A stretch of 21,262 bases of DNA from UHGV virus genome UHGV-0196349. One strand, 5' to 3'. Shown one piece after another: positions 722 through 20,386 of this stretch; within the stretch, counting starts at the first letter, position 1; each line of letters begins with the position of its first letter. The translations under genes and the position numbers were made by a program. This DNA comes from a virus. The notes below the pieces were generated by a model, which saw only the letters and a program-made list of their open reading frames with translations, was not told the DNA's origin and searched no databases.

Positions 722-3667
722 TTAGTGCTTCCCTTCTATTAAGTCTAACCTAGCTTTTATCTTATCCATTTCTCTGCGCTGCCATGCCGCCTCGATATAG
801 AATAAGAGATCAGGCCTGACCCCCCATCTAGATCCTGCTGGCGTTATTTCAACGCGCTCAATGATGTCTTCCATTACCATCACTGGATTATCATCCTCAT
901 CAACAATGATGCTCCCGTCATTATCAGTCAGCGGCATTTCCCTTTGGCCAGTAATGACGTCATCATATACTGCGGGATAATCGTCATAGCAAAGAAACGC
1001 ATAGCGGCATGTTGTGCTTTCTTCTTCCATGAGTCCGTGAGAAATAAGAACATCACGAAGTTGCTGCGCGATTACACCATGATGTATCCTCGCCCCTTCT
1101 TCCCCCTTTATAGCGACAGCGTTCAGCCATTTATAAGCGATATACCTGACGTCACCCCAGGCATCCAGCAATGTTTCGTCAGGAGAGACCGGCTCTGTCT
1201 TTAATGTTCCGTCACTGGTAACCACAGGATTGGAGCCAAGATAAACTATCGAGAACCTGTTTCCCGGACCACCAAGAGCATTTACATTATCAAGATAAGG
1301 TTTAACATCTCCGTTCTCAAAAAGATGTTCGAGTGCGTTATATACCGCGCGACGTGGAGTACTGCTTCTGGAACCATGCAACGTTATCATTGCACCATCT
1401 GCTGAAGACGTTGTTTCACCGCCGCTAACGATTAATCTCTGAGCGGTAACATCATCAGACGGTACTTTCTTCGCAATAATGGCGTAATTACCCTCAAGTT
1501 TGACTTCCGCGCGAACTTGTCCTGATGTACCTGCATGGACAGTCAGTGACTGGACGGCAACATCATCTGTGAAATCAACGGGTACAGGAACCGTCCTCAC
1601 GCCTGACGTCGACATAAAAGTAGGAAGCGTTCTGTTAGGAGTGGCTCCGTAGACAAAATCCCTTGAAACAAATTCTTCCTGTTTAATTTTCACCCTGAAA
1701 CAATACAAATCAGCCGGGTGACCATCGTGAACATAAGGATATTTTCTGTTGTTATCCCCTATGCTCCATGGGTTTAGAAAGTCTTCCCCACCGAAAATGT
1801 AGTACAGCCAGTTGTCTTTGATACAAACTGAACCAACACCAACCGCAGAGTTAACTATTCCGCCCTGATAAATCTGATCAGTAACATTAACCCACTCTAC
1901 ATTATCCAGACTCCACTCATTGACGTTAACTCTGGTCATAAATGTTCTTGGATAATTTCCTGCATAACGGTTATCAGGTTCTCCTCCTTCCCACTCACCA
2001 AATGCGCGCTCACTGCCAAAAATAATCAGCTCATCGCCAACTTTGGCAAAAGGAAGGTTTGAGTGATGAACATTATTTGGGAAGCGAAGAGAGTTCCATG
2101 ATGTACCTAAATCAGAGCTTCTGTGCAATGAACTACCGGGTTGAGTACTTAATGTCCCCCTGGTCGTCAGATACAGAATGCCATCATAATATTTTACACA
2201 TGGCTCAGATGCATTCGCCTCATATTCTACAGGTATGCGTCTGCGAACAAAGCTACCAGGAGAACCGAAAGCATCAGAGAAATAGAGTATCCCAAGCTCG
2301 CGTGGACCAATATCACCATTATGGTAGCCAACAGCAAAACTGTTATCGCTAATCGTCGCAAAACTGTGAATCTCAGTAACAGGAGTGCTTCCGTCAACAA
2401 AAGAAGGAATAGTTCCAAGACTGGTTTTTCTCCATGGTGACGAGTGAAATGATGTACCAAAACTCCAGTATCTACCCTCGTTATTCTGATCCACATCCTG
2501 GGTATTTTGCGTCGTAACTGTAAAGGTATTTTTATCAATAACAGTAGTCACCGTCATATTCCCGGTAACATCTGTAACACCAGAGTTTGAGAAGTTGACA
2601 AAATCACCAGCAAATAATCCGTGATCAGTAATGCGAATATAAGCGACTTGCTGATTTGCTGCTTTCGTTATACCACCATAAACGCGAAGGCTGCGACTCA
2701 TTGGGCGATCCCACAACTCTGCAACCTGCAGTTTATTTCCTCTCACGGTCCGCGTCTCAATTACAGCAAAAAGGCGATTTCTGACAACCCCCATACTCAT
2801 GCAGTGATAGTTAACTGTGGGATAGTTTTCATGTAAATCTGTAAGCCATTCCGGCGTTGTCCAGGTCTTCCCGTCATCTCCTGAGCGAACCCATGCAACA
2901 TGGAGGTTATTTACACCATGGCGGTCTCCAGCCATAAAAGGCGCATAGATGACATTGTCATATACAAACGTTTTATCCTGCGTCCAGGCGTTGTACCACG
3001 GTGTATCTGTAATTTTAAATAACTCTCCCTGGATAAAATCTTCAGAAGCATAAAAAAGAGGCTGACCCGGTATTCTCTCAAATAAAAAACGAGCATTTTT
3101 AAATCGACTGACATCTGGAAGAGTTGATACTTTAAAAGTAAGCCCTCGCCCATCTATCTTTTCACCACCTGTTGCAACAGAAAGTAATTCTGATAGAGCT
3201 GATGTATCATCATGAACACCATCACCAATAGCCCCCCAACCTCTTACATCATAACTGTCTCTCCATCTTGCTATCTGAAGTTTTGGGTATTTATTCGCTC
3301 CATCTGGGTCTTCTAATTGCTGCCGTAGTTGATCAGGGTCATACTTCAGCACATTAGGAAAATAGAACTGCTGCGCACCATACGCATCATAAACAGCCAT
3401 AGAATGGCCTTGCACGGTAACGAATTTGGCAATCTGTCCGTTATATACAGGATATCCAGCAGCGTTAATGATTATTGGTTGCGAAACAGGAACGTGAGAA
3501 CCGTCTTCGTTTTCCACATAAACCTGAATCTGGTTTTCAGGATTTACAGGGTCAGTGTCAATTTTACCGATATAAATTTTGCCATTGGCTACGGCTTTAA
3601 AAGAACGCGCCATAGTGAAGAGTTGCGAAGGCATCGATACGATCACATTGGCTGTAATGTCTCTCAT
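722..3667 (-). CDS. Chimeric tailspike: P22 gp9-type N-terminal head-binding domain + endo-N-acetylneuraminidase (K1 polysialic acid endosialidase) + C-terminal intramolecular-chaperone autocleavage domain
   Basis: 981-aa ORF. The N-terminus ([10 protein letters not shown]...[33 protein letters not shown]...[14 protein letters not shown]...NVLKYDPDQ) is near-identical in pattern to the P22 tailspike head-binding domain. Asp-box sialidase motifs are present ([16 protein letters not shown]). The C-terminus has the S74-type motif [11 protein letters not shown], with a Ser...Lys dyad at the expected cleavage serine (codon at 1214-1216). ATG at 3667 with GGAG about 11 nt upstream. Confidence 0.85.
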
Positions 3668-3725
3668 TTAATTTGCTCCAGACACAAGGAATCGCCGCAG
3701 CATGGCTACGGTGAATTTTGGGCAT

Positions 3726-3748
3726 AAAAAAACCCAGCCGAAGCTGGG
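3726..3748 (-). terminator. Intrinsic terminator between ant and tailspike (CCCAGC-UUCG-GCUGGG + U7)
   Basis: On the minus strand: 6-bp GC-rich stem, UUCG tetraloop, then 7 U. It lies 20 nt downstream of the ant stop. P22 has a partial terminator at the same ant / gene 9 junction. Confidence 0.7.
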
Positions 3749-3767
3749 TCGTTGCGTTGGTTATCTG

Positions 3768-4703
3768 TCAGTAGTTATGTACTGAAGGAGGTAATTCTTT
3801 ATTCTTAAGTCTCATCCATGCGGAAAGATTCGTTGGTCCATCTGGCTCATTGATATCAACATCTCGTGTATGGTTGATTAAAACATCTCTCGCCATATCG
3901 ATAATACGGGAGAACTCATAACCGCAGTCATGACATCTGCCGGAATAGTTCGATTGAATTTGTTTCAGCGCCGGATACAGTTCGCGGAATAATGCCTGTG
4001 AGCGGTTGGCATAATCCCATAACCATACAAGGCTGTTTGCTTCTTTTGCAGAAAGCTCGTCGGTTTTCTTCTCTTGTTTGCCAATGAACTCACCTTCAAG
4101 CGGAACGCGAGCAGCAAGTGACAGTGCTTCGGTAAACTGCTCCTCACTGATTTCTTTGTACGAACATCCAAAATGGGATTTCAGTGACGACCACATGGTG
4201 ATCATCGCCTTAGCCTGTTTTTCTTTTGGCAGAGACTGACCGCGACTCATGACGAGTTGTTTAATGGCTTCCTGCTGTTCAGTGGTGATTTTACCCGGCA
4301 ACGCCTTTTTAGATTTGCGTGGGTTAACTACATAGCCTTTAGTCCAGTAGTCATGCAGCACGCTAAAGCATTCCTCCTGGTACTGAATCAGTTTATCACG
4401 GATGTCAGCACGAACTTTCTCAGGGTTGATGCTGAACAGCCATCCATTTAACTTCTTCAAAGGAAGGCAGAGTAGCTTACGAAGCTTCCCATCAGCGGCA
4501 ACCATGTTCATATGAACACAGTTGAATTTGCTAATCTGCTTCATGAGTTTTGTTTGCTGCGTTGACCAGCTCATTCCAAGGTTTTCAACGATTGGCTTCA
4601 TCGCAACATATGCAACTCCGGCAGCAATGGCGGTGATAATTTGCTGACCGTTGAATGGTACGTAAGAGGTGTTCACTGCTTCTAAAATTGCTATACTATT
4701 CAT
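3768..4703 (-). CDS. ant: Antirepressor Ant
   Basis: Translation from the internal ATG at 4703 begins [43 protein letters not shown], matching the P22 Ant N-terminus. GGAG lies 9-10 nt upstream. The ORF-track start at 4769 is an in-frame upstream extension that overlaps the preceding gene. Confidence 0.85.
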
Positions 4704-4765
4704 GTTGGTTTTTCTCCACGGATTTACTGACAACCGAAGCCCTGACTGTTCCCGCAGTTGGGGCT

Positions 4766-4969
4766 TCAACTTTCTGATCTATCAGTTATATCTTTCCCTT
4801 CATATACTTCACCTATATTGCTAATGCTGGCAGAACATCCAAGATGCTTGTATCTTATGATGTCCAACACGCAGTCACTACACAGCATCCGACCTGTTTC
4901 TTTAGAGTAAATGTATGTTTGATCAGCGTCTGATTCGCTAATGCCGCAGAAACAACATTCTTTACTCAT
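4766..4969 (-). CDS. Small Cys-rich protein (CxC...CxxC, putative zinc-ribbon) inserted between arc and ant
   Basis: 67-aa [39 protein letters not shown]... Its ATG overlaps the arc stop as ATGA (4969-4966), suggesting translational coupling. No recognised homolog. P22 itself has no gene at this position. Confidence 0.5.
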
Positions 4970-5118
4970 ACCATTACCCCCTCTCTCTTCAAGCTGTCTA
5001 TCAGGCGCTTGATAACCTCTGAGTTAAACGACCTGCACTCTTCCTTTGCCCTGCTACCTATAGCATCCTTTAACGACTGCGGCATCCTTACCAAAATCTT
5101 ACTTATTTCTTTCTCCAT
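4966..5118 (-). CDS. arc: Arc-type ribbon-helix-helix repressor
   Basis: 50 aa from the ATG at 5118 (GGAGGG SD 5-6 nt upstream): MEKEISKILVRMPQSLKDAIGSRAKEECRSFNSEVIKRLIDSLKREG. The motif ..RSxNSE... and overall alignment match P22 Arc. The ORF-track start at 5154 is a TTG extension. Confidence 0.8.
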   Translation of the reverse strand: MEKEISKILVRMPQSLKDAIGSRAKEECRSFNSEVIKRLIDSLKREGVMV

Positions 5119-5232
5119 GTTACCCTCCACACAAACAACTCTTTTCGAATACAAAAGATATCAAAGTGAGTATATCTAGTCAAAATTTTTTTGCATACAC
5201 TTTGCTATCAAATTGAATACCAAAGGTGTGAT
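5119..5232. promoter_or_regulatory. Divergent immI control region (Pant leftward, Pmnt rightward) with candidate operators
   Basis: Minus strand: -35 TTGACT (5183..5178), 17-bp spacer, -10 TATCTT (5160..5155). Inverted repeat AGATAT-N10-ATATCT (5156..5177) overlaps the spacer and -10. A second inverted repeat TCTTTT-N7-AAAAGA (5140..5158) lies over the predicted start site. This mirrors the P22 O-arc / O-mnt layout, but the sequences differ from P22 operators. Confidence 0.4.
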
Positions 5233-5481
5233 ATGGCAAAGGGTGTGTCAATTTCTCCAACTACGGTAAGAATCCCTGAATCTTTACGCGAGGCTCTTGC
5301 TGTCAGAGCATCAAAAAATGGTCGCTCTGTTAACTCCGAGATCGTCATGATTTTGCAAGCCGCGATTGATGAAGATAGGTCGCCAAAGTCAGTTGAGTCA
5401 TTTGCTCAGCAAGAAGCTGACAAATTCAAAGAGGCGCTGCTTGAGACGCTAAAGACCATGTATGGTAAGGATGAAAAATAA
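5233..5481 (+). CDS. mnt: Mnt-type ribbon-helix-helix maintenance repressor
   Basis: 82 aa from the ATG at 5233: MAKGVSISPTTVRIPESLREALAVRASKNGRSVNSEIVMILQ...LETLKTMYGKDEK. The RHH core ..NGRSxNSE.. and P22 Mnt-like length fit. It is transcribed opposite to arc-ant, as in P22 immI. Confidence 0.8.
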   Translation: MAKGVSISPTTVRIPESLREALAVRASKNGRSVNSEIVMILQAAIDEDRSPKSVESFAQQEADKFKEALLETLKTMYGKDEK

Positions 5482-6017
5482 TGCTGCACACAATTCATTT
5501 CTTATGCCCCGTTAACACTGCCACTGTTGGGCAACTTCAGAACCACTGTCTCACCGCATTATCTCAAGGCGCAACTGAATTAAATATCCATATATCAAGT
5601 CAGGGAGGGGAAACTGCCGCTGGCTTTACTGCGTATAACTTTCTTAAGTCACTCCCTGTTACCGTTAGAACTCACAACATAAGCAATGTTGAATCCATAG
5701 CTAATATCGTTTTCCTGGCTGGCTCAGAACGTTTCGCAAACCCATTATCAAGATTCCTGTTACATCCTCTATTATGGTGCTTTGCCTCCCCAGCCGCCGA
5801 CCATGCCAGATTGAGAGAGTACGGGAAATGCCTCGATAACGATCTTGATCGCTTCGTTGAGACGTTCAATATCGACATCGGAACCCATATTAGGTGGGCA
5901 TCCCTGATAGCAGACTCGACCATTTTGGATGCTAACAAGGCTCTTGAGCATGGCATAATTAATTCCATAAAAACTGCAAGGCTGGTATCCAATCAGGCAA
6001 ACTGGTGGGTTGTTTGA
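5481..6017 (+). CDS. ClpP-fold (Clp/crotonase-like) serine protease-like protein, coupled to mnt
   Basis: 178 aa. The start overlaps the mnt stop (TAATG). It aligns by eye to the ClpP core: IHISSQGGE ~ YINSPGG; AAGFTAYNFL ~ TAGMSIYDTM; NVESIANIVFLAG ~ GQAASMGAFLLTAG (nucleophile Ser in register); RFLLHPL ~ RVMIHQPL (His in register). It is shorter than ClpP and lacks the N-terminal axial region. Confidence 0.7.
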   Translation: MLHTIHFLCPVNTATVGQLQNHCLTALSQGATELNIHISSQGGETAAGFTAYNFLKSLPVTVRTHNISNVESIANIVFLAGSERFANPLSRFLLHPLLWCFASPAADHARLREYGKCLDNDLDRFVETFNIDIGTHIRWASLIADSTILDANKALEHGIINSIKTARLVSNQANWWVV

Positions 6018-6046: not shown

Positions 6047-6082
6047 AACCCACCTGACGGTGGGTTAATTTTTACCTTTTTT
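6047..6082 (+). terminator. Intrinsic terminator after the ClpP-fold gene
   Basis: Stem AACCCACC/GGTGGGTT (6047-6054 / 6059-6066) with a TGAC loop, followed by AATTTTT and a second T6 (6077-6082). It lies 30 nt after the stop. Confidence 0.55.
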
Positions 6083-6155
6083 GGACCATATTGACTACTC
6101 ATAAAATGAGATCAATATTTAATCGCCCAATAACGGGTGCATGTTGAGGTATATC

Positions 6156-6335
6156 ATGGCGAAAAAACCAGGTGAAAACACAGGAAAAAACGGCGGAATA
6201 TACCAAGAAGTTGGCCCACGCGGCGGTAAGAAAGACAATTTTGCCACCGTCAAGGACAACGAAAGGCTTCCACCAACAACAAAGCCAGGTCATGGCTGGG
6301 TATTGGATAAGCGAACTCCAGACAGCAAAAAGTAA
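6156..6335 (+). CDS. Small basic Gly/Lys-rich protein, possibly YjzC-like family
   Basis: 59 aa from the ATG at 6156 (GAGGT 7 nt upstream): MAKKPGENTGKNGGIYQEVGPRGGKKDNFATVKDNERLPPTTKPGHGWVLDKRTPDSKK. The GxYxExG...W...KR pattern recalls YjzC-like small proteins; this is from memory and unverified. It is followed by a hairpin + T-run. Confidence 0.5.
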   Translation: MAKKPGENTGKNGGIYQEVGPRGGKKDNFATVKDNERLPPTTKPGHGWVLDKRTPDSKK

Positions 6336-6340
6336 TACTC

Positions 6341-6363
6341 AAGCCGGGTCACTCCGGCTTTTT
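6341..6363 (+). terminator. Weak intrinsic terminator (AAGCCGG-loop-CCGGCTT + short T-run)
   Basis: Stem 6341-6347 / 6354-6360, 6-nt loop, then TTT. The stop codon of the convergent minus-strand ORF lies in the loop. Confidence 0.4.
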
Positions 6364-6714
6364 GATATGTCGCTCGCAGAACTCAACAAGCCTGCTCATT
6401 AAGTAGCAGTAAGTCTCATTGGCTCTTCCTGGTTCAACATCAACACCGACCCTTGAGCAGATATCGAATGCCATGTGAGCGCACTCATGGGCAATAGTAG
6501 ATAGTTTGCCATTGAACACGCCTATCACATGCAAAACACCATTCTCGCTGCTCATTGTATGAGACGCTCCGTTGGCGTCCGAGTCATGCACGTCAACGCC
6601 AAGTTTTTGATGCAGGCGTTGCCATTCTGGAAAGTCTCTACAAAACACAATTGTACCGCTCTCAAAGAGCGGAACGAGCATCTTTGGTACGTTTCCAATG
6701 TTAACTTTTTTCAT
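6349..6714 (-). CDS. Small HExxH-motif protein (putative minimal zinc-metallopeptidase-like)
   Basis: 121 aa from the ATG at 6714 (AGGA 4 nt upstream): MKKVNIGNVPKMLVPLFESGTIVFCRDFPEW...STIAHECAHMAFDICSRVG... It contains a single HExxH motif. The family is not recognised. Its 5' end abuts the divergent plus-strand gene, about 30 bp between starts. Confidence 0.5.
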   Translation of the reverse strand: MKKVNIGNVPKMLVPLFESGTIVFCRDFPEWQRLHQKLGVDVHDSDANGASHTMSSENGVLHVIGVFNGKLSTIAHECAHMAFDICSRVGVDVEPGRANETYCYLMSRLVEFCERHIKKPE

Positions 6715-6744
6715 GGTATCCTGCTCAAAACTAAGGAGCTTGGT

Positions 6745-7134
6745 GTGAAGCAATTTCTTGCTGCTATGTTCTTATTCATATCTTTTGGGGCTACAGCAGA
6801 GTGCTGGGTCGTTGGAGATATGCGCGGAATAAGCTATTCAGAACGAAATAATTTCCATCCGGAAGAAGATGGTTTTAGTGGAACATTCATCATTAAGACA
6901 AGCGGTGAAGATGCCAGCATCACATATTCTGGGACAGATGCGGGCGGCATGGCTTACAAAGCATTGTCTAAAAACTCCATCATAGGAATCGGCGCGAATG
7001 GCGAAACTCAACGCGTTATCGACTCATGGGTAATACATCCTACTGGAACAGTTTTAATGTCAAAAACCATTTCTGGTTATGGGAATATGGATTCAACCAA
7101 AGCTTTTGTTGGAAAAGTAAAAAGAAAATGTTAA
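6745..7134 (+). CDS. Signal-peptide (secreted/periplasmic) protein of unknown function
   Basis: GTG at 6745 with TAAGGAG 6 nt upstream. The N-terminus MKQFLAAMFLFISFGATA|ECWVV has a basic n-region, a hydrophobic core and an A-x-A-like cleavage site; it is not a lipobox. The mature protein is about 111 aa, Gly/Ser/Thr-rich, with Cys near both ends. The in-frame ORF-track extension to 6529 overlaps the opposite-strand gene and is discounted. Confidence 0.55.
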   Translation: MKQFLAAMFLFISFGATAECWVVGDMRGISYSERNNFHPEEDGFSGTFIIKTSGEDASITYSGTDAGGMAYKALSKNSIIGIGANGETQRVIDSWVIHPTGTVLMSKTISGYGNMDSTKAFVGKVKRKC

Positions 7135-7158: not shown

Positions 7159-9000
7159 TTACTGCTGTGTTGCCTCAGTAGCAAGCAGCGGCCTGATGGC
7201 ATTTGCAGCGTTACTCAACGCTCTTTCATAGGCTGGTGTTCCTGCTTTGGTGTTTGCCAGACGTAAGAGCGCATTCCTTGCTGCTTTGGACTCATACAAG
7301 CGCATCATTGCACCGAAACCAGCCTCAAGCCCCATTGATACGCCAAGAGTCGCAGTTGCGCCAATCGTCCTTATCCTGTTGGCTTGCGATTGCCCCGTCT
7401 GAGTTACTACATTTGCGGTGTCTGACCTTGCTGTTTGCTGCAGAACTTCATGAAGAGCATCAAGTTCTTTCATGTGCTTTCCAGAAAAAATAGTGTTGTA
7501 AATTTCACCGCCTGACTGAGATTTCAGCTTATTAACTTCAGTGATGAACTTGGCTGGAGAGTCACCGGCCTTTTCCGCTATTTTGCTGACGTAAGCTGCA
7601 CGCATAGCATCTTTCCCTTTATCATCCAGTGCGCTCCAGATTCGTTTCACGTCAGATGGTTTTCTGCTTAATACAACGGTATTTATAAGTTCAGGACTGG
7701 CTTCACTGCTTGCCTTGTTGAGTTTGTTAGCAATGTTTTTATTAAGCACCTTATTATAAACGTTTGCATAATCGGAATTTGCTTTAAGGTATTTTGCTGC
7801 GTCTGATGCACCGAGGTTTTTAGCAACTGCGTTACGAAGGTCTTTTGACATTGCATTCTCTACCATATTGGTAGCTGCTTTTGCCTGGTTGGGGAAGACC
7901 ATAGCATCTCCCTGAACATTAGATCTAAATGCTGTTCTGTGCTGACGCAAGAGATCAAACGTAACATCCAAATCAGTTGCAGGGTTTGCTAATTCTTCAC
8001 GTAGGTTACGCAAGGATGTAAGCAGGCTTTGATTGGCAGACGTCCCAAGTCGTTCCTGTCTTGCGATCGCTGTATTCAGAGCATTCATGGTATTTGTGGT
8101 ATCAACTGCGGCATTACCCATTTTATTGGTGACGTCATTGATAACAGCGCCAGCGGCATCCTTCCTCCCCCTTAACGTGGTGGTCAGAGATTTCACCACA
8201 TCATCAGGGTTGTACTCACCAAAACGGTCAAAATAATTACTTACCAGCTTACTACGCGTTGCATATTGCTCCGCTCGCTTTGAGCCTGTCCCGAGCAAAG
8301 CCCCCTCGGCATCCTGAGTAAGGCCGCGAGTGAAAGCATTTTTCGGCGGGATAACATCAGATGTCATTGGTGTCACGCCCATCGATTCTGATGTGGCAAT
8401 TTTCTTCGCCACTTCTGGCGCAATATCACCTTTTATAGCCGTTATTCCACGCCCTATTCCCTTTGCTGCGGCGGAAAGAACACCCTGAGCGGCAAGGTTA
8501 ACTCCGGCATTTTTAGCTGCATTTTGTGCGAAATCGCCTTTCTGATTTGCGGCCTCTGCCAGTGATCCAATAGCCATGCTTCCTGCCGTTCCAACTCCTG
8601 GAACTAAATACCCACCAATTGTTTCACCGGCTTGTGCGTAGGGGTCTGTCGGTCTGTCTACTGGACGATAAACATCATCCAAAACCTTGGGTCCACCAAG
8701 CCCCTGACTGATTGCATTAATCAGACTTGCGCCACCCTGCAATACGTCAAATGGTATGTTTACCAGACCACGACCAGCCTGTTCTGCAATTTGCTCTGCA
8801 CTTTGACCACCAGTGAGCCAATCGCCAGCTTGTTGCATCAATGATGGTTCTTCCCGTGTTGGTGCATTATTGGCCTGATTAACTGTTTGTTGCTGAACAG
8901 CCTGACCAGCAAAATACTCATCAATGGCGGTGCCAATATCTTCGGTGCTCGTACCATCAGGAAAGGTAAATGTCTTACCGTTTGCAGTTACTTTCATCAT
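7159..9000 (-). CDS. gp16: Ejection (injection) protein gp16
   Basis: 613 aa, [30 protein letters not shown]..., recognised as P22 gp16-like. The ATGA overlap with the gp20 stop and the synteny 7-20-16 both fit. Confidence 0.85.
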
Positions 9001-14500: not shown

Positions 14501-15796
14501 TCACGCAGTCTGGTTAGGCAGGCCAACGCCAATTGCCTCTGGTCGTACAGCACATGCTGAATACCACACAGCAATACGGCACTTACCAGACAGAGTGTTG
14601 ATATCACCCTGCGTTGCGAAGATGCCGTTAACACCAATGCCAGGAATGCTGAAGGAAGAAGTTTTCATGCCAGCAAACAGTTCATGGGTTACCGGGATCG
14701 GCTGAGACAGTAGGCGGATTGAGTCATCAGCCCAGAACACGTTAGCGGTGGTTGTTGCCACGTTCAGAACGTTTACCGGAGTGGTATCAGCAAGAGAAGT
14801 GTTTACGTTAGCGTAAGCCTTCTCTTCTTTTGTCAGTGACGCGTCATCCAGTGCAATCGGTTTCGGCGTGATTTCGATGTGAGTACTATCGATCACACGG
14901 GTGATTGAGAAAGTTGCATCATCAGTCAGCACGTTCTTCGCCATCTGAGACAGGAATTTCACACCAGTGAAGCTGATTTTGTCGCCGCGCTTAAATCCGG
15001 TGGTGGAGGATACGGTCACCGTTGCAACACGGTTGTCGACGTTCTCTTTGTTACCATCGGTATCAAGGGTGTATGCCTGCGGCTTAAACTTCTGCGCACC
15101 AGACACAGTTACACCAGTAGCGGTTGACTTGGTAACTGCCGGAAGTTTCGGTGAGCGAAGAATTTCATCAAAGCCAGCAATCTGACGCTGAATAGTACCG
15201 TTGCGATACGCTTCTTCAGGAACGCGCCCGAAGATGTCACCATCTACCAGGTTGCGGCCTGCTTTACGGTAATCGTCAGGGTTCAGGAAGTAACTGATGC
15301 CCATATCGCGGTTTAGCTCACGGGAGAACATCAGGCGCTCTGCATCAGACACAAAATCCCAGCCAGACAGGCCAGTAGATGGACCAATTGCGCGGGTATC
15401 GTGAACAACAAGCGAGCCCATTTCAGTTGCCTGTTTGGCAATCGCTGACTCAATGTTATTCGCCAGTTTTTTGGCGGATGCCTGGATGCGGCGACGGTAA
15501 GAACGCTCATCACGCAGGTCATCTGCACGAAGCTCGAAGAAATCGTTATCCGGATCGCCCATGTTGCACTTCACGGAGAGTTCCAGAATCCCGGTTGCGT
15601 TGCCAGTTAAATCCCAGCCAGTCTGGGTTGGCGCTTCCTGCTCAACAGGCATCCACACGGTGTTGCTTGAACGCTGCATGGATTCTGCCGGAGGGGTGTA
15701 TTTTGTCACTTTGGACGCCATTGGCGTCAGGTTCTGGACGGTTTCGATGATTTCATCCAGAGCATACGTGACTAGTTGACCTTCATTTAATGCCAT
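14501..15796 (-). CDS. gp5: Major capsid (coat) protein gp5
   Basis: 431 aa, [27 protein letters not shown]...[22 protein letters not shown]...; closely matches P22 coat protein along its length (P22 is 430 aa). Confidence 0.95.
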
Positions 15797-16707
15797 TATC
15801 GAATTCCTTTATTCAGTTGCGCCTTAAGCTTGCGGTATGTCTCTACATCCCCTTTGTTTGCTGCCGCTTCCATCTGCTTTTCAATCGCAGATATATTTGC
15901 AGCAACAGCGTGTCCCTGAATGGGTTCATCAGGTAGCGGGGCTTCTGAAACAGGTTTGGCTCGAGGCTTGAGAGTTAAACGTTCTGACAGTAGAGTGAGT
16001 TCAATCAGCGCGGATTTCCCGTCCATCGCCAGCAACTGGCGTGTTTTCTCAGGATTAGCACCAAGGTGATACATGAGAGCGGCGGATTTCTCCGGGAAGA
16101 GGCGCATGATGTCGGCACCGACTGCTGGCGGCACCAGTTGCATGAATACATCCTCTTTCTCCTGATAGTCAGGGATATTGAGCTTTTCCGCTGCGTCGTA
16201 GTGCTTACGGGCTGCCTCGACGTATTGCGCTGATTGCTGGGTGAACTCCTGAGTTTTGCGACCCTGCTCGGCGACAGCCTGGCTTCGTGCGTCCATAGCC
16301 TTGATCTGCCATTCACTGTTTGCCTGCTGGAAGGCAGCCAGTGCGCGGCTCTGGTCATAGTCGTACTTAGCCAGTGCGTCTTCGGAAAGATAATCGTTAG
16401 GGTCTGGTTGTTTTGGTAACTCAGGGTTCACCCGCAGGTGCTCCGGCAACTCTCCCCGCTTAACCGCTTCCATCTGTTGCTCAAGCTCACGCTGGCGTTT
16501 GCGTTCGATGCGGCGACGGGCAAATTCAGCATTAGTTGCCGGGTCTTGTTTTGGTTTCTCATCGTCTTTCAGGACAATCTCGAAGCCTTCTTCCTGACCT
16601 GCGTTGTCGTTGGCATTATCGACAACTAAGCCATCAGCAGATGCCGCTGCATGATTGCCGGGCAGGGTTAATTCTTCAGAAGCCTGAATGTCGGTGGTTT
16701 GGTCCAT
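15796..16707 (-). CDS. gp8: Scaffolding protein gp8
   Basis: 303 aa, the same length as the P22 scaffold. It is charged and helical-looking, and lies between portal and coat. Its stop overlaps the coat start (TAATG). Confidence 0.85.
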
Positions 16708-16720
16708 GATTAACTCTCTC

Positions 16721-18886
16721 TTATTGAGGTGTCTCGGCTACTCCGCCGGAGGGGATTTGAACTTGACGCATAAGATTCGCGAAATCCATGCGTTGTGAAT
16801 GAGTCTGGTCTGCATCTTTAAGAAGCAGCTCAGCGTTAGCACGAGCATCTTTGCTGCGCTGTTGCTGGAATTGACCTACGAGCTTGAGGTACTCACGCAG
16901 TTCTGCCTGCTTGTCGAGGTCCATATTGTTGAAGATTTCTGCAATCTTCGCGGCGTTGAGTTGGTTTTGGGCTTCAACCTTGGCGGCTTCAACCTGAATC
17001 TGCGCCTGTTGGTTCTCTGCCTTGAGCAATTCAGCCTGACCTTGCAGAAGGATACCCTGCGCCTGAATTTGCTCTGCTGATGGCTGCTGCGGCTGCTGTT
17101 GAGCCTGCTGTACCATCTCCATCTCTTCAGGTGTTTCTGGCTTCTTCAGCCCCATCATCACCAGTTGCTTGTTCGCGTACTCTCGCATCATCTCGACGCC
17201 TTTACCGTCAAGCAGCGTGAAGTATTGCAGCATCAGCATCTGGAACTCTGGAGTACCTTGCGGAACCTTGGTGAGCAACTCCTGAATCTCTGCGCGGTTC
17301 TGTTCCTTCATACTCTGGAAGGATGGTCCTACGTCTGTATAGCACTCATAGCGACCGCGAATGTCGTTGAGTGTGACCACATTGCCGGACTGGTAATCGA
17401 CAACTTGCGCATAGAGTTGAATGTCTTTCTCGCTTCCATCTTCAAGTGTCAGCGTTACATGACGAGGAACGTCATAAATATCGTTGACCATTGAGGCATA
17501 AATCTCGCCATCACGTCGCATTGCGGTAGCCAGGTTATCCTGAAACACGTATGTCTCAAGGTCTGCCCGCATGTTAAGTTGATTGACGGTATCGAAAGCG
17601 ACCTGACCATTTGCCGCCTGCGCATCCACGCCAAGACTAGCCACTTCTTTCACTGCGTTGGTGGCAGCCTCAAGCATGTAAGCGTTGGCTTGCGGCACTT
17701 CAGGGTTTTCCATGTAGGAGATTGGACCAATCGGCAGGTCGTTACCGTTTTCATCAGTCCTGTTCTGGAGATAGTACGGATAGTCATCATTTCCACCGTA
17801 CATGTATTCGTAGCCTTCTATTTGCTCAGGGAAGAAGGTAGGTTTCTTCTTCGGTGAACGAGCAACAATATCGGCGTTGAATGACATGATCATGTTACGA
17901 AGGCGCTGACCGTCTTTCGTCAGCCTTACCACTCCTTCGTAGCACTCCTTGTCACCAGCGAATGACCATTCGCCGTACACAGGAACGATTGGGATATGCT
18001 CTCCGGCTATCTTCTCTCGGTCCTTCAGTATCTGCGTGCAGGTGATGATCGACTTATACACACGCCGACGCTTGATCTTACGCTCTGCTACCTTAATGAA
18101 TCCACGATTAGCCAGGTCGTCGATGACGTCTTTGATATCCTGCTGGTAATAGCTGACCGGCTCACCTGTCAGCGGGTCGCGGTAGATGAAGACTTTCTCC
18201 TTCTTCTCTTCTACCTCGTAATACTCAGCGACGTAGACGACATCATTCGATACCCACGGAAACAGCCATGTATCGTTCGGATTCTGGAAAGATGGCAGGG
18301 TGTCAGGATCAATACCGTAATCCTCTGCGAACTCTTTCCAGCCATTGCGTGACAAAGCGTTAATCACCGTGCAGTGCTTAGCGTCGCTCTTATCCATCTG
18401 CTTGCTGTTGGCGTCCCATATGACGTGTGAGCAGGCTTCATGGATTGGAAGGCGTCGGATTACCTGATTGTTGCTTGTTGGGTCGTTGTCTTCGTACTGC
18501 GTGACCAGACGCCATGCACCAACGCCGGACTCTATCTGCTCACGAACGCCAACGTTAACGGCAATTTTTGCCGTGTTATGGCGCATATCAGTACGATACA
18601 TCCCCATCAGCACATCGGCAGCATCAGGATTAGCTCCGTCTTTTGGTCTGAAGAGAACATCGATAGGGTTACGGCGCATCTCTGCGACCAGTTTCCTGAC
18701 CACCGGGCGAACAACATCGAATTGTCCGCGATATTGCAGGGTGGTGTAGTTTGATAGCCAGTCATCCCATTGCGACACTCGGCTAAAATACAGGTCATTT
18801 GTCGCCTCGGTTCTGGCTTCATCGCTCGCCATCCAGTCCGCGTCAAACTTACACAGAATGGAATTGAGTCTGTTTTCGTCGGCCAT
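16721..18886 (-). CDS. gp1: Portal protein gp1
   Basis: 721 aa (P22 portal is 725 aa). It lies between terL and scaffold. The C-terminal region is a Q/E-rich coiled-coil-like barrel, as in the P22 portal. Confidence 0.9.
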
Positions 18887-20386
18887 TTAAGTTCTCCGTG
18901 CGATTGGCCTGATTGGGGCTGGTATCTTTTTCTCTTTTGGTTTTTTGATGTCGCGCATCATTTTTGCGAAGCGGCGCATCATGTATGCATAGCGAACGGC
19001 GGAGAGAACGTCATCGTTAAGCTTGACGATTTTCCCGTTTTCATCACGGTGATAGAGGCGGAACTCCTCAAAGAATGGCTCACAGGTGTTGAATACTTTG
19101 AAGCGACCGTCGAGCATCATGTCTCGCAATTCAGTGATGCCAGGCTCAACAGCGTTACCGCCATCAGGCCATGTCGCATGCTCCTGCAACATCATAAATC
19201 CAGCGTCCGCATACTGCCCTTTGAGCTGCTCACCGCCGCCCTTCTCGTGCTGGTTTCCGTCATGAGGCCATGCGGTTGGCACTTTATGCGCCCATGGTTT
19301 AACAGCTCCCCACGCCTGAACGGCTGTCTTTTCTTTCGCCTTCCAAACGCGTGAAAGGTAGATTATGTCTGCGTCCTTATCCCACCAAAGCTGAACCTGC
19401 GCCTGTGGGTGATCCCATCCGAAATCCATCCCGCCAATTACGTAGAAGTGATCAGGACACTCGAACGGCTGACACTTAATCGTCTCTTCCGGTATCTGGA
19501 AGATTCGACCACTACCCATCGTAGGAATACCGCGAGCACGCGCCTCTCTCTCATGCTCAGGATAGGATGCGATGATTTGCTCTTTCTGCTCGTCGGTGTA
19601 GTGCTCAGCGTCATAGATGGTCATGTTGACCACTTTCTGCGACTTGCTGGGATTCTTCAGGAACTTGGTAACAACGTCAGACATCCCCATCAGCGGGGTA
19701 AACGTCAGAATTGAGAATTGCCCGTATTTGTTGGTACGGGTAAGCCCTTCGCCATAAATGCTGTATGGCGGCTCTTCGTCAAACCACACGCCATGGATTG
19801 TGTCACCCTGCCAGCGAGCGCGGCCTTGCGAGTATGGTTTGAAGTAGCAGATTGAAATGCCATCTTCAACGCCATCAGCCGTGTGATGCTTAACCAGAAG
19901 ATGATCAACAAGGTTCGGAAAGAAAGGAGACTTCTTCCAGCTAATGATGTCCTCTTTCGGTATTGAACCGTAGCCCGGCTCATCATTCTCTTCAATACGA
20001 CCGCACAGGATGCGTTGAGTCGTTTTGGTTACCGTCTCGTTTGTCTCGCCGCCAATCCAGAAGACAACAGGCTCATAGAAACGCTTACCTTTCCACTCAC
20101 CGCCATATTTACCATCAGCAGGATAGCCTTTTGTGCCCGGATAACGCCCGGTAAGGTGAAACGCGACTTCAGCAGCACCAGTAAATGACTTACCAAGCTG
20201 GTTACCAGCCATAAAACAGCGCTCTGGATAGTCATGCCCGGCGTCGATGAACTCACGCTGTTTGCTGTATGGCGTAAATTCATATAGCAGGTGTGTGTTC
20301 CGGTAGTTCTCTTCTTCTTCGAGTAGCTCGAGCAATTCGATTTGCTCTTCGTCGCTCAAGTTATCAAGAATCGCGTCCAGTTCCAC
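18887..20386 (-). CDS. gp2: Terminase large subunit gp2
   Basis: 499 aa, the same length as P22 gp2. It lies immediately upstream of the portal, and its start overlaps the terS 3' end. Confidence 0.9.

Follow-up and report, generated by a model that had tools for sequence, protein, structure and literature searches.

The closest characterised relative of the gene described here is that of PpClpP1 from Pseudomonas plecoglossicida (PDB entry 9UXT), a ClpP paralogue of 183 amino acids that is N-terminally truncated and forms a homotetradecamer with a 42.7 Å axial pore (PMC12900304, PLoS Pathog 2026). Its peptidase activity is 13-fold below that of the housekeeping paralogue and needs Ser73 and His96 (the Ser73Ala and His-to-Ala mutants are inactive), and the third residue, Pro151, is dispensable. 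PpClpP1 does not bind ClpX, and on its own it degrades neither casein labelled with fluorescein isothiocyanate (FITC-casein) nor GFP-ssrA; combined with housekeeping ClpP, it enters a stable heterotetradecamer with higher activity. The same study likens PpClpP1 to PaClpP2 (PMC12900304). In the two-paralogue systems (P. aeruginosa ClpP1/ClpP2, Listeria ClpP1/2 and M. tuberculosis ClpP1P2), one paralogue has little or no activity by itself, or is unable to dock an unfoldase, and works when stacked on the other ring; both genes are chromosomal in one organism, and full length is kept. Here we describe a gene for a 178-amino-acid ClpP-like protein, found in a stretch of 21,262 nucleotides of UHGV virus genome UHGV-0196349 (the window), where its start overlaps the end of a gene for an Mnt-like maintenance repressor. 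In this case the second paralogue would reach E. coli, a host with a single ClpP, by way of a temperate phage. The gene and the codons of its key residues are as follows.

5481-6017, plus strand: 178-amino-acid short ClpP paralogue (PpClpP1-type), assigned by Pfam CLP_protease, an AlphaFold2 (AF2) model and a profile match to 9UXT
5694-5696, plus strand: codon of Ser72, the predicted nucleophile, equivalent to Ser97 of E. coli ClpP (hhalign to E. coli ClpP) and Ser73 of PpClpP1
5763-5765, plus strand: codon of His95, the predicted general base, equivalent to His122 of E. coli ClpP and His96 of PpClpP1
5916-5918, plus strand: codon of Ser146, at the canonical position of the triad Asp, equivalent to Asp171 of E. 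coli ClpP and Pro151 of PpClpP1 (hhalign)

We assign the protein to the PpClpP1-type short ClpP paralogues on the basis of profile and structure comparisons. A profile built from 36 homologues matches 9UXT with an E-value of 4.2e-52 over 177 of 180 positions, and ordinary ClpPs are matched at about 1e-13. Foldseek superposes the AF2 model on 9uxt with a template modelling (TM) score of 0.94, a root-mean-square deviation of 1.6 Å and 38% identity, the second-best fold match being the Listeria ClpP1/2 heterocomplex (4ryf). The family is large, with 279 clusters at an E-value of 1e-30 or better in a search of 1.84 billion cluster representatives, and its members are mostly 180-200 amino acids long. 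PpClpP1 and the window protein are alike in size (183 and 178 amino acids), and both are N-terminally truncated, with a Ser/His pair, a third residue other than Asp and a conserved hydrophobic C-terminal strand (NWWV in the window protein, QWSV in PpClpP1). They differ in the third residue itself, which is Pro151 in PpClpP1 and Ser146 in the window protein, and in genomic setting, the PpClpP1 gene being chromosomal and the window gene being coupled to mnt in a prophage. Measurements of oligomeric state, activity and hetero-assembly exist for PpClpP1 alone, the window protein being known from its sequence and model. In Pseudomonas (loci L020-L025), the PpClpP1-type gene is consistently flanked by genes for KGG-repeat stress proteins and one for a DUF6555 protein, and these neighbourhoods contain no prophage genes. 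The KGG and DUF6555 neighbours hint at a stress-regulon context, which is not discussed in the 9UXT paper.

The assignment of the fold itself is secure. The earlier note on this DNA, made from the sequence alone, had read the gene as that of a ClpP-fold protease with the nucleophilic Ser and the His in register, and both parts of that reading hold. Pfam CLP_protease (PF00574) matches residues 24-165 with 44.4 bits, against a gathering score of 20.2 (E-value 2.2e-11); the AF2 model has a mean predicted local distance difference test (pLDDT) score of 93.7, and Foldseek superposes it on E. coli ClpP with TM scores of 0.83-0.85 at approximately 20% identity (E-value about 1e-13). The window protein and E. 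coli ClpP (1tyf and 1yg6) thus have the barrel-subunit fold in common. In the profile-profile alignment made with hhalign, for which the E. coli ClpP sequence was checked against PDB 1tyf, Ser72 falls on Ser97 and His95 on His122, and the SSQGG motif of the window protein aligns with the NSPGG oxyanion-hole motif of E. coli ClpP (SQGG on SPGG). Ser72, His95 and Gly43 are invariant in 36 of 36 close homologues and also in 147 of 147 family representatives, a set that consists of 145 of the cluster representatives above, clustered at 50% identity, together with the window protein and PpClpP1.

The third residue is a different matter. The earlier note had proposed a check of the Ser/His/Asp geometry, and by alignment the Ser and His are present but the canonical Asp is not, its position being taken by Ser146, so that the Ser-His-Asp triad of canonical ClpP is incomplete. 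Across the 147 representatives, the six residues most often found at this position are G, A, R, S, P and E, none of them dominant. We therefore take the PpClpP1-type family as a whole to be a Ser-His variant of ClpP, because Ser and His are invariant and the Asp position is variable.

In several other respects, too, the 178-amino-acid protein does not look like a canonical housekeeping ClpP. Compared with E. coli ClpP, it has no pro-peptide and no axial N-terminal loops; it begins at the first core beta-strand, the Pfam match starting at profile position 37 and the hhalign alignment at E. coli residue 54. The pocket of E. coli ClpP that receives the IGF/IGL loops of ClpX and ClpA, which we take to be lined by Y60, Y62, F82, I90, M92, F112, L114 and L189, aligns (hhalign) with N35, H37, S57, H65, I67, F85, N87 and K164. 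Five of these eight residues are polar or charged, and one further residue is a histidine, which does not make a hydrophobic docking pocket. All of the NCBIfam cut-offs for ClpP are missed by a wide margin, the best ClpP model scoring 40.2 bits against a cut-off of 228 and TIGR00493 scoring 19.2 against 308.6. At the C-terminus, residues 172-177 read QANWWV (window 5994-6011); the NWWV is kept throughout the enterobacterial branch and is modelled as a beta-strand. This strand may cover the apical surface at the place where unfoldase loops would dock. The gene is intact and under strong purifying selection, with a dN/dS of 0.083 against the Pectobacterium orthologue and of 0.08-0.09 in the two other usable comparisons (three comparisons were usable in all, since dS is saturated for distant pairs).

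The S14 prohead proteases (phrog_94, NF045542) are, like the window protein, phage-encoded Ser/His domains of the ClpP fold. Their genes lie between those for portal and coat, frequently as fusions with a scaffold or capsid domain. The window gene differs from these in encoding a bare domain of 178 amino acids and in running antiparallel to the late operon, the head part of which is laid out as follows.

18887-20386, minus strand: large terminase (late operon)
16721-18886, minus strand: portal (late operon)
15796-16707, minus strand: open reading frame (ORF) of 303 amino acids in the scaffold position (late operon)
14501-15796, minus strand: P22 coat (late operon)

The proposal that the gene encodes a head-maturation (prohead) protease comes from the annotation of phage phiv205-1 and from the best PHROG match (phrog_94, "head maturation protease", 7.4e-21). 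GenBank record MN340231 likewise annotates the gene as a head maturation protease, and NCBIfam NF045542 (Clp_rel_HeadMat) matches it, although the 49.3 bits obtained are far under the cut-off of 120. The position of the gene points the other way. The late operon runs on the minus strand in the order terminase, portal, 303-amino-acid ORF, coat, and then tail-accessory and ejection proteins (gp7 and gp20-like); no protease is found among the genes of the head block (14501-20386), and the ClpP-like gene lies at 5481-6017 on the plus strand. Its product carries no scaffold or targeting extension, and the best structure in the viral library is only 23% identical to it, compared with 38% for the chromosomal PpClpP1. 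To our knowledge, P22-type assembly uses no prohead protease. Position, strand, mode of assembly and the sub-cut-off family score together effectively refute a role in head maturation, to which we attach next to no probability, in agreement with the earlier note, which had placed the gene in the immunity region rather than in the morphogenetic operon.

That immunity region, immI, is organised in the window much as it is in P22, with mnt divergent from arc and ant beside the tailspike gene. Its features, up to the terminator that closes it, are listed below.

3768-4769, minus strand: ant, the antirepressor gene (Pfam P22_AR_N 1.9e-44 and P22_AR_C 7e-28; phrog_245, anti-repressor Ant, 1.7e-95)
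4766-4969, minus strand: cysteine-rich ORF of 67 amino acids (CxxC ... CxxC) between arc and ant (phrog_7150, 1.2e-49)
4966-5154, minus strand: arc, for an Arc-like ribbon-helix-helix (RHH) repressor, divergent from mnt (Pfam Arc 8.5e-12)
5155-5232: arc-mnt intergenic control region, where the divergent promoters Pant and Pmnt and their operators are expected
5233-5481, plus strand: mnt-like maintenance repressor gene, 82 amino acids, RHH fold with a C-terminal helix (Pfam Arc 9.6e-11)
5467-5483, plus strand: coupling junction, with a Shine-Dalgarno-like AAGGA (5467-5471), the stop codon TAA (5479-5481) and the start codon ATG (5481-5483)
6047-6066, both strands: two-way intrinsic terminator (terminator scan), which closes the unit of mnt and the clpP-like gene

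The ORF upstream of the clpP-like gene is Mnt-like, in line with the earlier note: the best solved relative of the 82-amino-acid protein is the P22 Mnt repressor (1mnt, E-value 2.3e-6), with Arc a weaker match, and the gene is divergent from arc and ant. The overlap described there is also as reported, the mnt stop codon and the start codon of the clpP-like gene sharing one base in the sequence TAATG (5479-5483), with the AAGGA nine bases ahead of the ATG. Compared with P22 immI, the window has two additions, namely the extra overlapping gene in the mnt unit and the 67-amino-acid cysteine-rich ORF between arc and ant. This small ORF, for which we know of no counterpart in the classic P22 immI map, overlaps both of its neighbours, and 10 related loci also have it upstream of the cassette, with 98-100% identity. 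The true start of arc may be an internal ATG, which would give a protein of about 50 amino acids.

In the control region, a consensus scan finds a promoter-like site on the minus strand (5183-5155). There are also two pairs of inverted repeats, one at 5157-5168 and 5198-5209 (92% complementary) and the other at 5194-5208 and 5233-5247, which extends into the start of mnt; on sequence grounds, both pairs are candidate operators for Arc and Mnt. Pmnt would be placed in 5155-5232 by analogy with the layout of P22.

Salmonella phage ST160 shows where the clpP-like gene has been added. The two phages have an Mnt-like repressor and a downstream terminator in common, and the window sequence from 6041 onward, including the terminator at 6047-6066, is the same as the end of mnt and the terminator in ST160, the two terminators being identical. 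ST160 has no clpP-like gene, and the stop codon of its mnt falls within the terminator stem. Because the terminator downstream of the clpP-like gene is the one that ends mnt in ST160, the clpP-like gene lies inside the mnt unit, between mnt and the ancestral mnt terminator, and its co-expression with the maintenance repressor is therefore naturally expected. We infer that it is co-transcribed with mnt in the lysogen. Lysogens of Gally, a related P22-like prophage of E. coli, transcribe mnt, with a 40-fold induction in macrophages (PMC9928086). Gally itself appears to be without the clpP-like gene: in its sister strain, NRG 857C, the match covers only 9% of the query.

The linkage to mnt was followed through 124 loci, 100 of which came from IMG/VR and one-genome-per-species scans. 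Fifty-two of them encode a ClpP-like protein that is at least 79% identical to that of the window (from E. coli and Pectobacterium), and the junction AAATAATGCT[G/A] is found in 49 of these 52, the other three being rearranged or frameshifted. An intact, coupled Mnt ORF is present at 47 of the 49 junction loci. The two exceptions are L003 (phage E212), which has a remnant of an insertion sequence (IS) in place of mnt, and L086, where the upstream ORF has been lost. An ant homologue lies upstream in 48 of the 52 loci. Within E. coli the clpP-like gene is 98-100% identical, and the Mnt proteins joined to it form at least 10 sequence variants, with about five clearly different DNA-binding types (L046-L093, L001-L005). 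All of the Mnt variants coupled to the clpP-like gene share only the C-terminal tail ...ETLK(T/K)(M/I)Y(G/A)KD(E/D/N)K, which in the window reads ...ETLKTMYGKDEK, and have the junction AAATAATGCTG in common. Since the varied Mnt proteins share only the tail and the junction ahead of a nearly identical clpP-like gene, the alignments imply an exchange point inside mnt and recurrent recombination there, in which the 3' end of mnt travels with the clpP-like gene.

The cassette can also move as a whole. In PhiR12_1 (L002, PV340549), ant, the small ORF, mnt and the clpP-like gene occupy 3606-5618, and the insertion site in the lambda-like PhiR12 siphophages lies between the tail-tip genes L and K. 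This immI-type module is mobile across phage morphotypes, because it sits intact in a lambda-like siphophage. In E212 (MZ043897, 4752-5033), the IS remnant, which is IstB-like and of the IS21 family, replaces most of mnt, and only its last codons (…YGKDEK) are left before an intact clpP-like ORF; the region is unannotated in the record.

An RHH gene that overlaps a downstream gene resembles a type II toxin-antitoxin operon, and the RHH protein of the window also matches the RHH domains of FitA-like antitoxins, which raises the possibility of a pair in which the RHH protein is the antitoxin and the ClpP-like protein the toxin. Such a pair should be obligately linked, and E212, with an intact clpP-like ORF and a destroyed mnt, shows that this one is not. 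Relatives at 74% identity or below all lack a coupled upstream ORF, Mnt-type repressors are widespread without a clpP-like gene, and the upstream protein is nearest to P22 Mnt, with its gene divergent from arc-ant. We consider a toxin-antitoxin relationship very improbable, and reject it on the existence of solo homologues and the retention of the gene without mnt in E212.

The solo homologues form the second part of the family seen here. A coupled upstream ORF is missing from all of the relatives at 52-74% identity, and a hidden RHH gene was looked for upstream of the solo homologues and not found. The question raised by the earlier note, whether the gene always travels with mnt, thus has a divided answer: it does so in the subclade of at least 79% identity, and the 52-74% relatives stand alone, elsewhere in other prophages. 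Among the neighbourhoods sampled, in Klebsiella, Leclercia and others, the solo gene lies between the lysis cassette and terminase; in Proteus, between the N gene and recombination genes; and in Chromobacterium, between lysis and tail-fibre genes. By a crude count of ORF orientations, 17 of 34 distinct solo contexts are antiparallel to the neighbours on both sides, and most of the others are antiparallel to the nearest neighbour. Such an orientation is the hallmark of a moron, meaning an accessory gene with expression of its own that would be expected to be on in the lysogen. Because the copies of at least 79% identity follow many Mnt variants and the 52-74% relatives are solo in other prophages, the clpP-like gene behaves as a mobile moron rather than as a specific partner of mnt.

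The solo loci bear equally on the idea that the protein serves immI itself, removing Ant, Arc or another immI product after translation and so stabilising lysogeny. Mnt represses transcription of ant, and a protease of this kind would back up that repression. The junction that remains invariant behind at least 10 Mnt variants in the subclade of at least 79% identity, the frequency of ant upstream (48 of 52 loci) and the entry of the ant-mnt-clpP cassette into the lambda-like PhiR12 phages as one block all fit such a role. The 69-74% relatives do not, being solo with no mnt or ant homologue within the fetched flanks of approximately 4-5 kb. Most P22-like phages, ST160 among them, also run immI without a clpP-like gene, and a subunit with neither a docking site for an unfoldase nor an adaptor has no evident way to select Ant. 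Taken together, these observations make a protease dedicated to immI distinctly unlikely.

What we find somewhat the more convincing, on the present analysis, is that the gene encodes a PpClpP1-type accessory paralogue of ClpP with a truncated N-terminus, expressed as a moron in the lysogen, and that this protein acts as a partner to host ClpP. Transcription would run from Pmnt through mnt, the TAATG overlap and the clpP-like gene to the ancestral mnt terminator, so that the ClpP-like protein would be made whenever Mnt is made, either by translational coupling or from its own Shine-Dalgarno sequence. The protein keeps the Ser72-His95 pair, the ClpP barrel and the SSxGG oxyanion-hole motif. By analogy with PpClpP1, it would form wide-pored heptameric rings that show little activity alone and bind no unfoldase, and such a ring would stack on a housekeeping ClpP ring of the host to give a mixed tetradecamer, which host ClpX and ClpA could feed through the host ring. 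In the lysogen, Clp proteolysis would thereby change in its capacity or in the spectrum of its products. That PpClpP1 alone degrades neither FITC-casein nor GFP-ssrA suggests a subunit meant to join housekeeping ClpP, not a stand-alone protease. Formation of tetradecamers, hetero-assembly with E. coli ClpP and a benefit to phage or host are each presumed here. Candidate pay-offs are exclusion of other phages, stabilisation of lysogeny and host fitness under stress.

Several observations weigh against this partnership with host ClpP. When produced in E. coli, PpClpP1 was isolated as a homotetradecamer, and the text consulted makes no mention of E. coli ClpP co-purifying with it (PMC12900304). 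The analogy is drawn from one homologue at 38% identity, encoded by a chromosomal Pseudomonas gene beside KGG stress-protein genes, and for the phage protein and the enterobacterial members the evidence is from sequences and models. The consensus promoter scan of 5155-5232 found no site on the plus strand. Finally, a general model of a host ClpP partner does not predict that copies of at least 79% identity should be strictly linked to mnt, a linkage that could instead signal an immI-specific role, for example on Ant.

Host ClpP partnership leaves room for more than one biological role, and one that is compatible with it is the superinfection-exclusion or anti-phage factor that a protease made in the lysogen might be, either destroying or mis-processing proteins of an incoming phage or triggering abortive infection. 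The gene fills the stretch downstream of mnt, which in P22 holds sieA, by orf59a and mnt (PMC10883804). In the window, no gene was noted as a sieA homologue in the strip that separates mnt from the gene-16 homologue, although no direct comparison with P22 SieA was made. Other prophages carry the gene at classic moron sites, mostly antiparallel to lytic genes, and it has spread horizontally, at 99% nucleotide identity or more, behind many Mnt variants. Yet no model in PADLOC-DB 2.0 matches the ClpP-like protein at an E-value of 0.1 or better; the neighbouring small ORFs are unmatched there too, and Mnt gave a chance-level match to BrxA only (E-value 0.028). The literature searched has no paper that ties the PpClpP1-type family to defence, the Pseudomonas branch is chromosomal among stress-protein genes and not in a defence island, and PpClpP1 alone degrades no proteins (PMC12900304). 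An exclusion effector is thus unlikely, though it is less so than a protease dedicated to immI.

A broader proposal can be built on the accessory-subunit model, namely that phages of Enterobacterales add a second ClpP ring subunit to single-ClpP hosts and so rewire ClpXP and ClpAP, under co-regulation with Mnt in the P22-like phages, in the service of lysogeny or exclusion. Rewired proteolysis could, for example, mean faster turnover of ClpXP-sensitive replication or regulatory proteins of a phage. We put this forward tentatively, as a doubtful but possible extension.

The gene is by no means rare. At a nucleotide identity of 99% or more, it is found in 128 of 5426 complete E. coli genomes (about 2%), always on the chromosome, and an "Arc family DNA-binding protein" is adjacent in nearly all of the 30 genome rows sampled. 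Carriers include the type strain ATCC 11775 and avian pathogenic E. coli (APEC) strains such as APEC O1, and the deposited phages with the gene are phiv205-1, EC.P3, E212 and PhiR12_1/4/5. In the phage records it is called "head maturation protease" or "hypothetical protein", or is left unannotated, and annotation pipelines label it "ATP-dependent Clp protease proteolytic subunit" or "head maturation protease"; neither pipeline label fits. The literature searched (on ClpP-like proteins and prophages, exclusion, anti-phage systems, mnt/immI, phiv205-1 and CUS-3) contained nothing on the clpP-like gene, and the papers on P22 SieA (PMC10883804) and on Gally of strain LF82 (PMC9928086) never mention Clp. 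The earlier note did not know the arrangement from described P22-like immI regions, and this stands for the literature searched, but in sequence databases the arrangement is common, as the E. coli genomes and phages above show. Already known, then, are the accessory short ClpP paralogues, characterised in 2026, and the exact gene, which is in public phage and genome records. We found no description of the prophage-borne nature of a large enterobacterial branch of the PpClpP1-type family, or of the fusion of one of its subclades into the mnt unit of immI.

The window as a whole comes from a P22-like prophage or phage of E. coli, of the Lederbergvirus type. Its remaining features, on either side of the immunity region, are these.

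722-3667, minus strand: tailspike, a P22 head-binding domain fused to a K1-capsule endosialidase
6141-6335, plus strand: hydrophilic ORF of 64 amino acids (phrog_3202; weak YjzC match), with its own promoter-like site and terminator
6349-6753, minus strand: ORF of 134 amino acids (phrog_1365)
6784-7134, plus strand: ORF of approximately 116 amino acids (phrog_2651)
7159-9000: ORF of 613 amino acids in the gene-16 position, identified from that position and by reference to annotated phages

The endosialidase part of the tailspike is complete, with a beta-propeller (1.7e-232), a tail-spike domain and an S74 chaperone. The prophage is K1-capsule-specific (compare CUS-3), because its tailspike joins a P22 head-binding domain to a complete K1 endosialidase. 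The 613-amino-acid ORF has no match in a Pfam search. Between the mnt terminator and this gene-16 homologue lies a strip of small accessory genes (6091-7134), of which the 64- and 134-amino-acid ORFs flank mnt in Salmonella phage ST160 as well. The 64-amino-acid ORF was considered as a partner of the clpP-like gene, by comparison with the KGG genes of Pseudomonas, and was rejected, as it adjoins mnt in ST160, where there is no clpP-like gene, and is absent at the solo loci.

E. coli is the textbook single-ClpP organism, and about 2% of its complete genomes carry a prophage-borne second subunit of the ClpP type. If this subunit joins host ClpP as its relative does in Pseudomonas, prophages would alter the core proteolytic machine of their host, with possible effects on stress responses, toxin-antitoxin turnover, recovery from the SOS response and the fate of superinfecting phages. 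A prophage would then manipulate its host, or gain immunity, by adding a protease subunit instead of using an adaptor or inhibitor. Its link to mnt makes the regulation of the gene simple to approach, and the 2026 work on PpClpP1 offers ready assays (peptidase activity, pull-downs and bortezomib inhibition). Even if the gene should prove to be without a phenotype, a recurrent mis-annotation is corrected. We regard the locus, as read from its sequence, as a solid and testable lead with a biochemical framework, rather than as a new kind of system.

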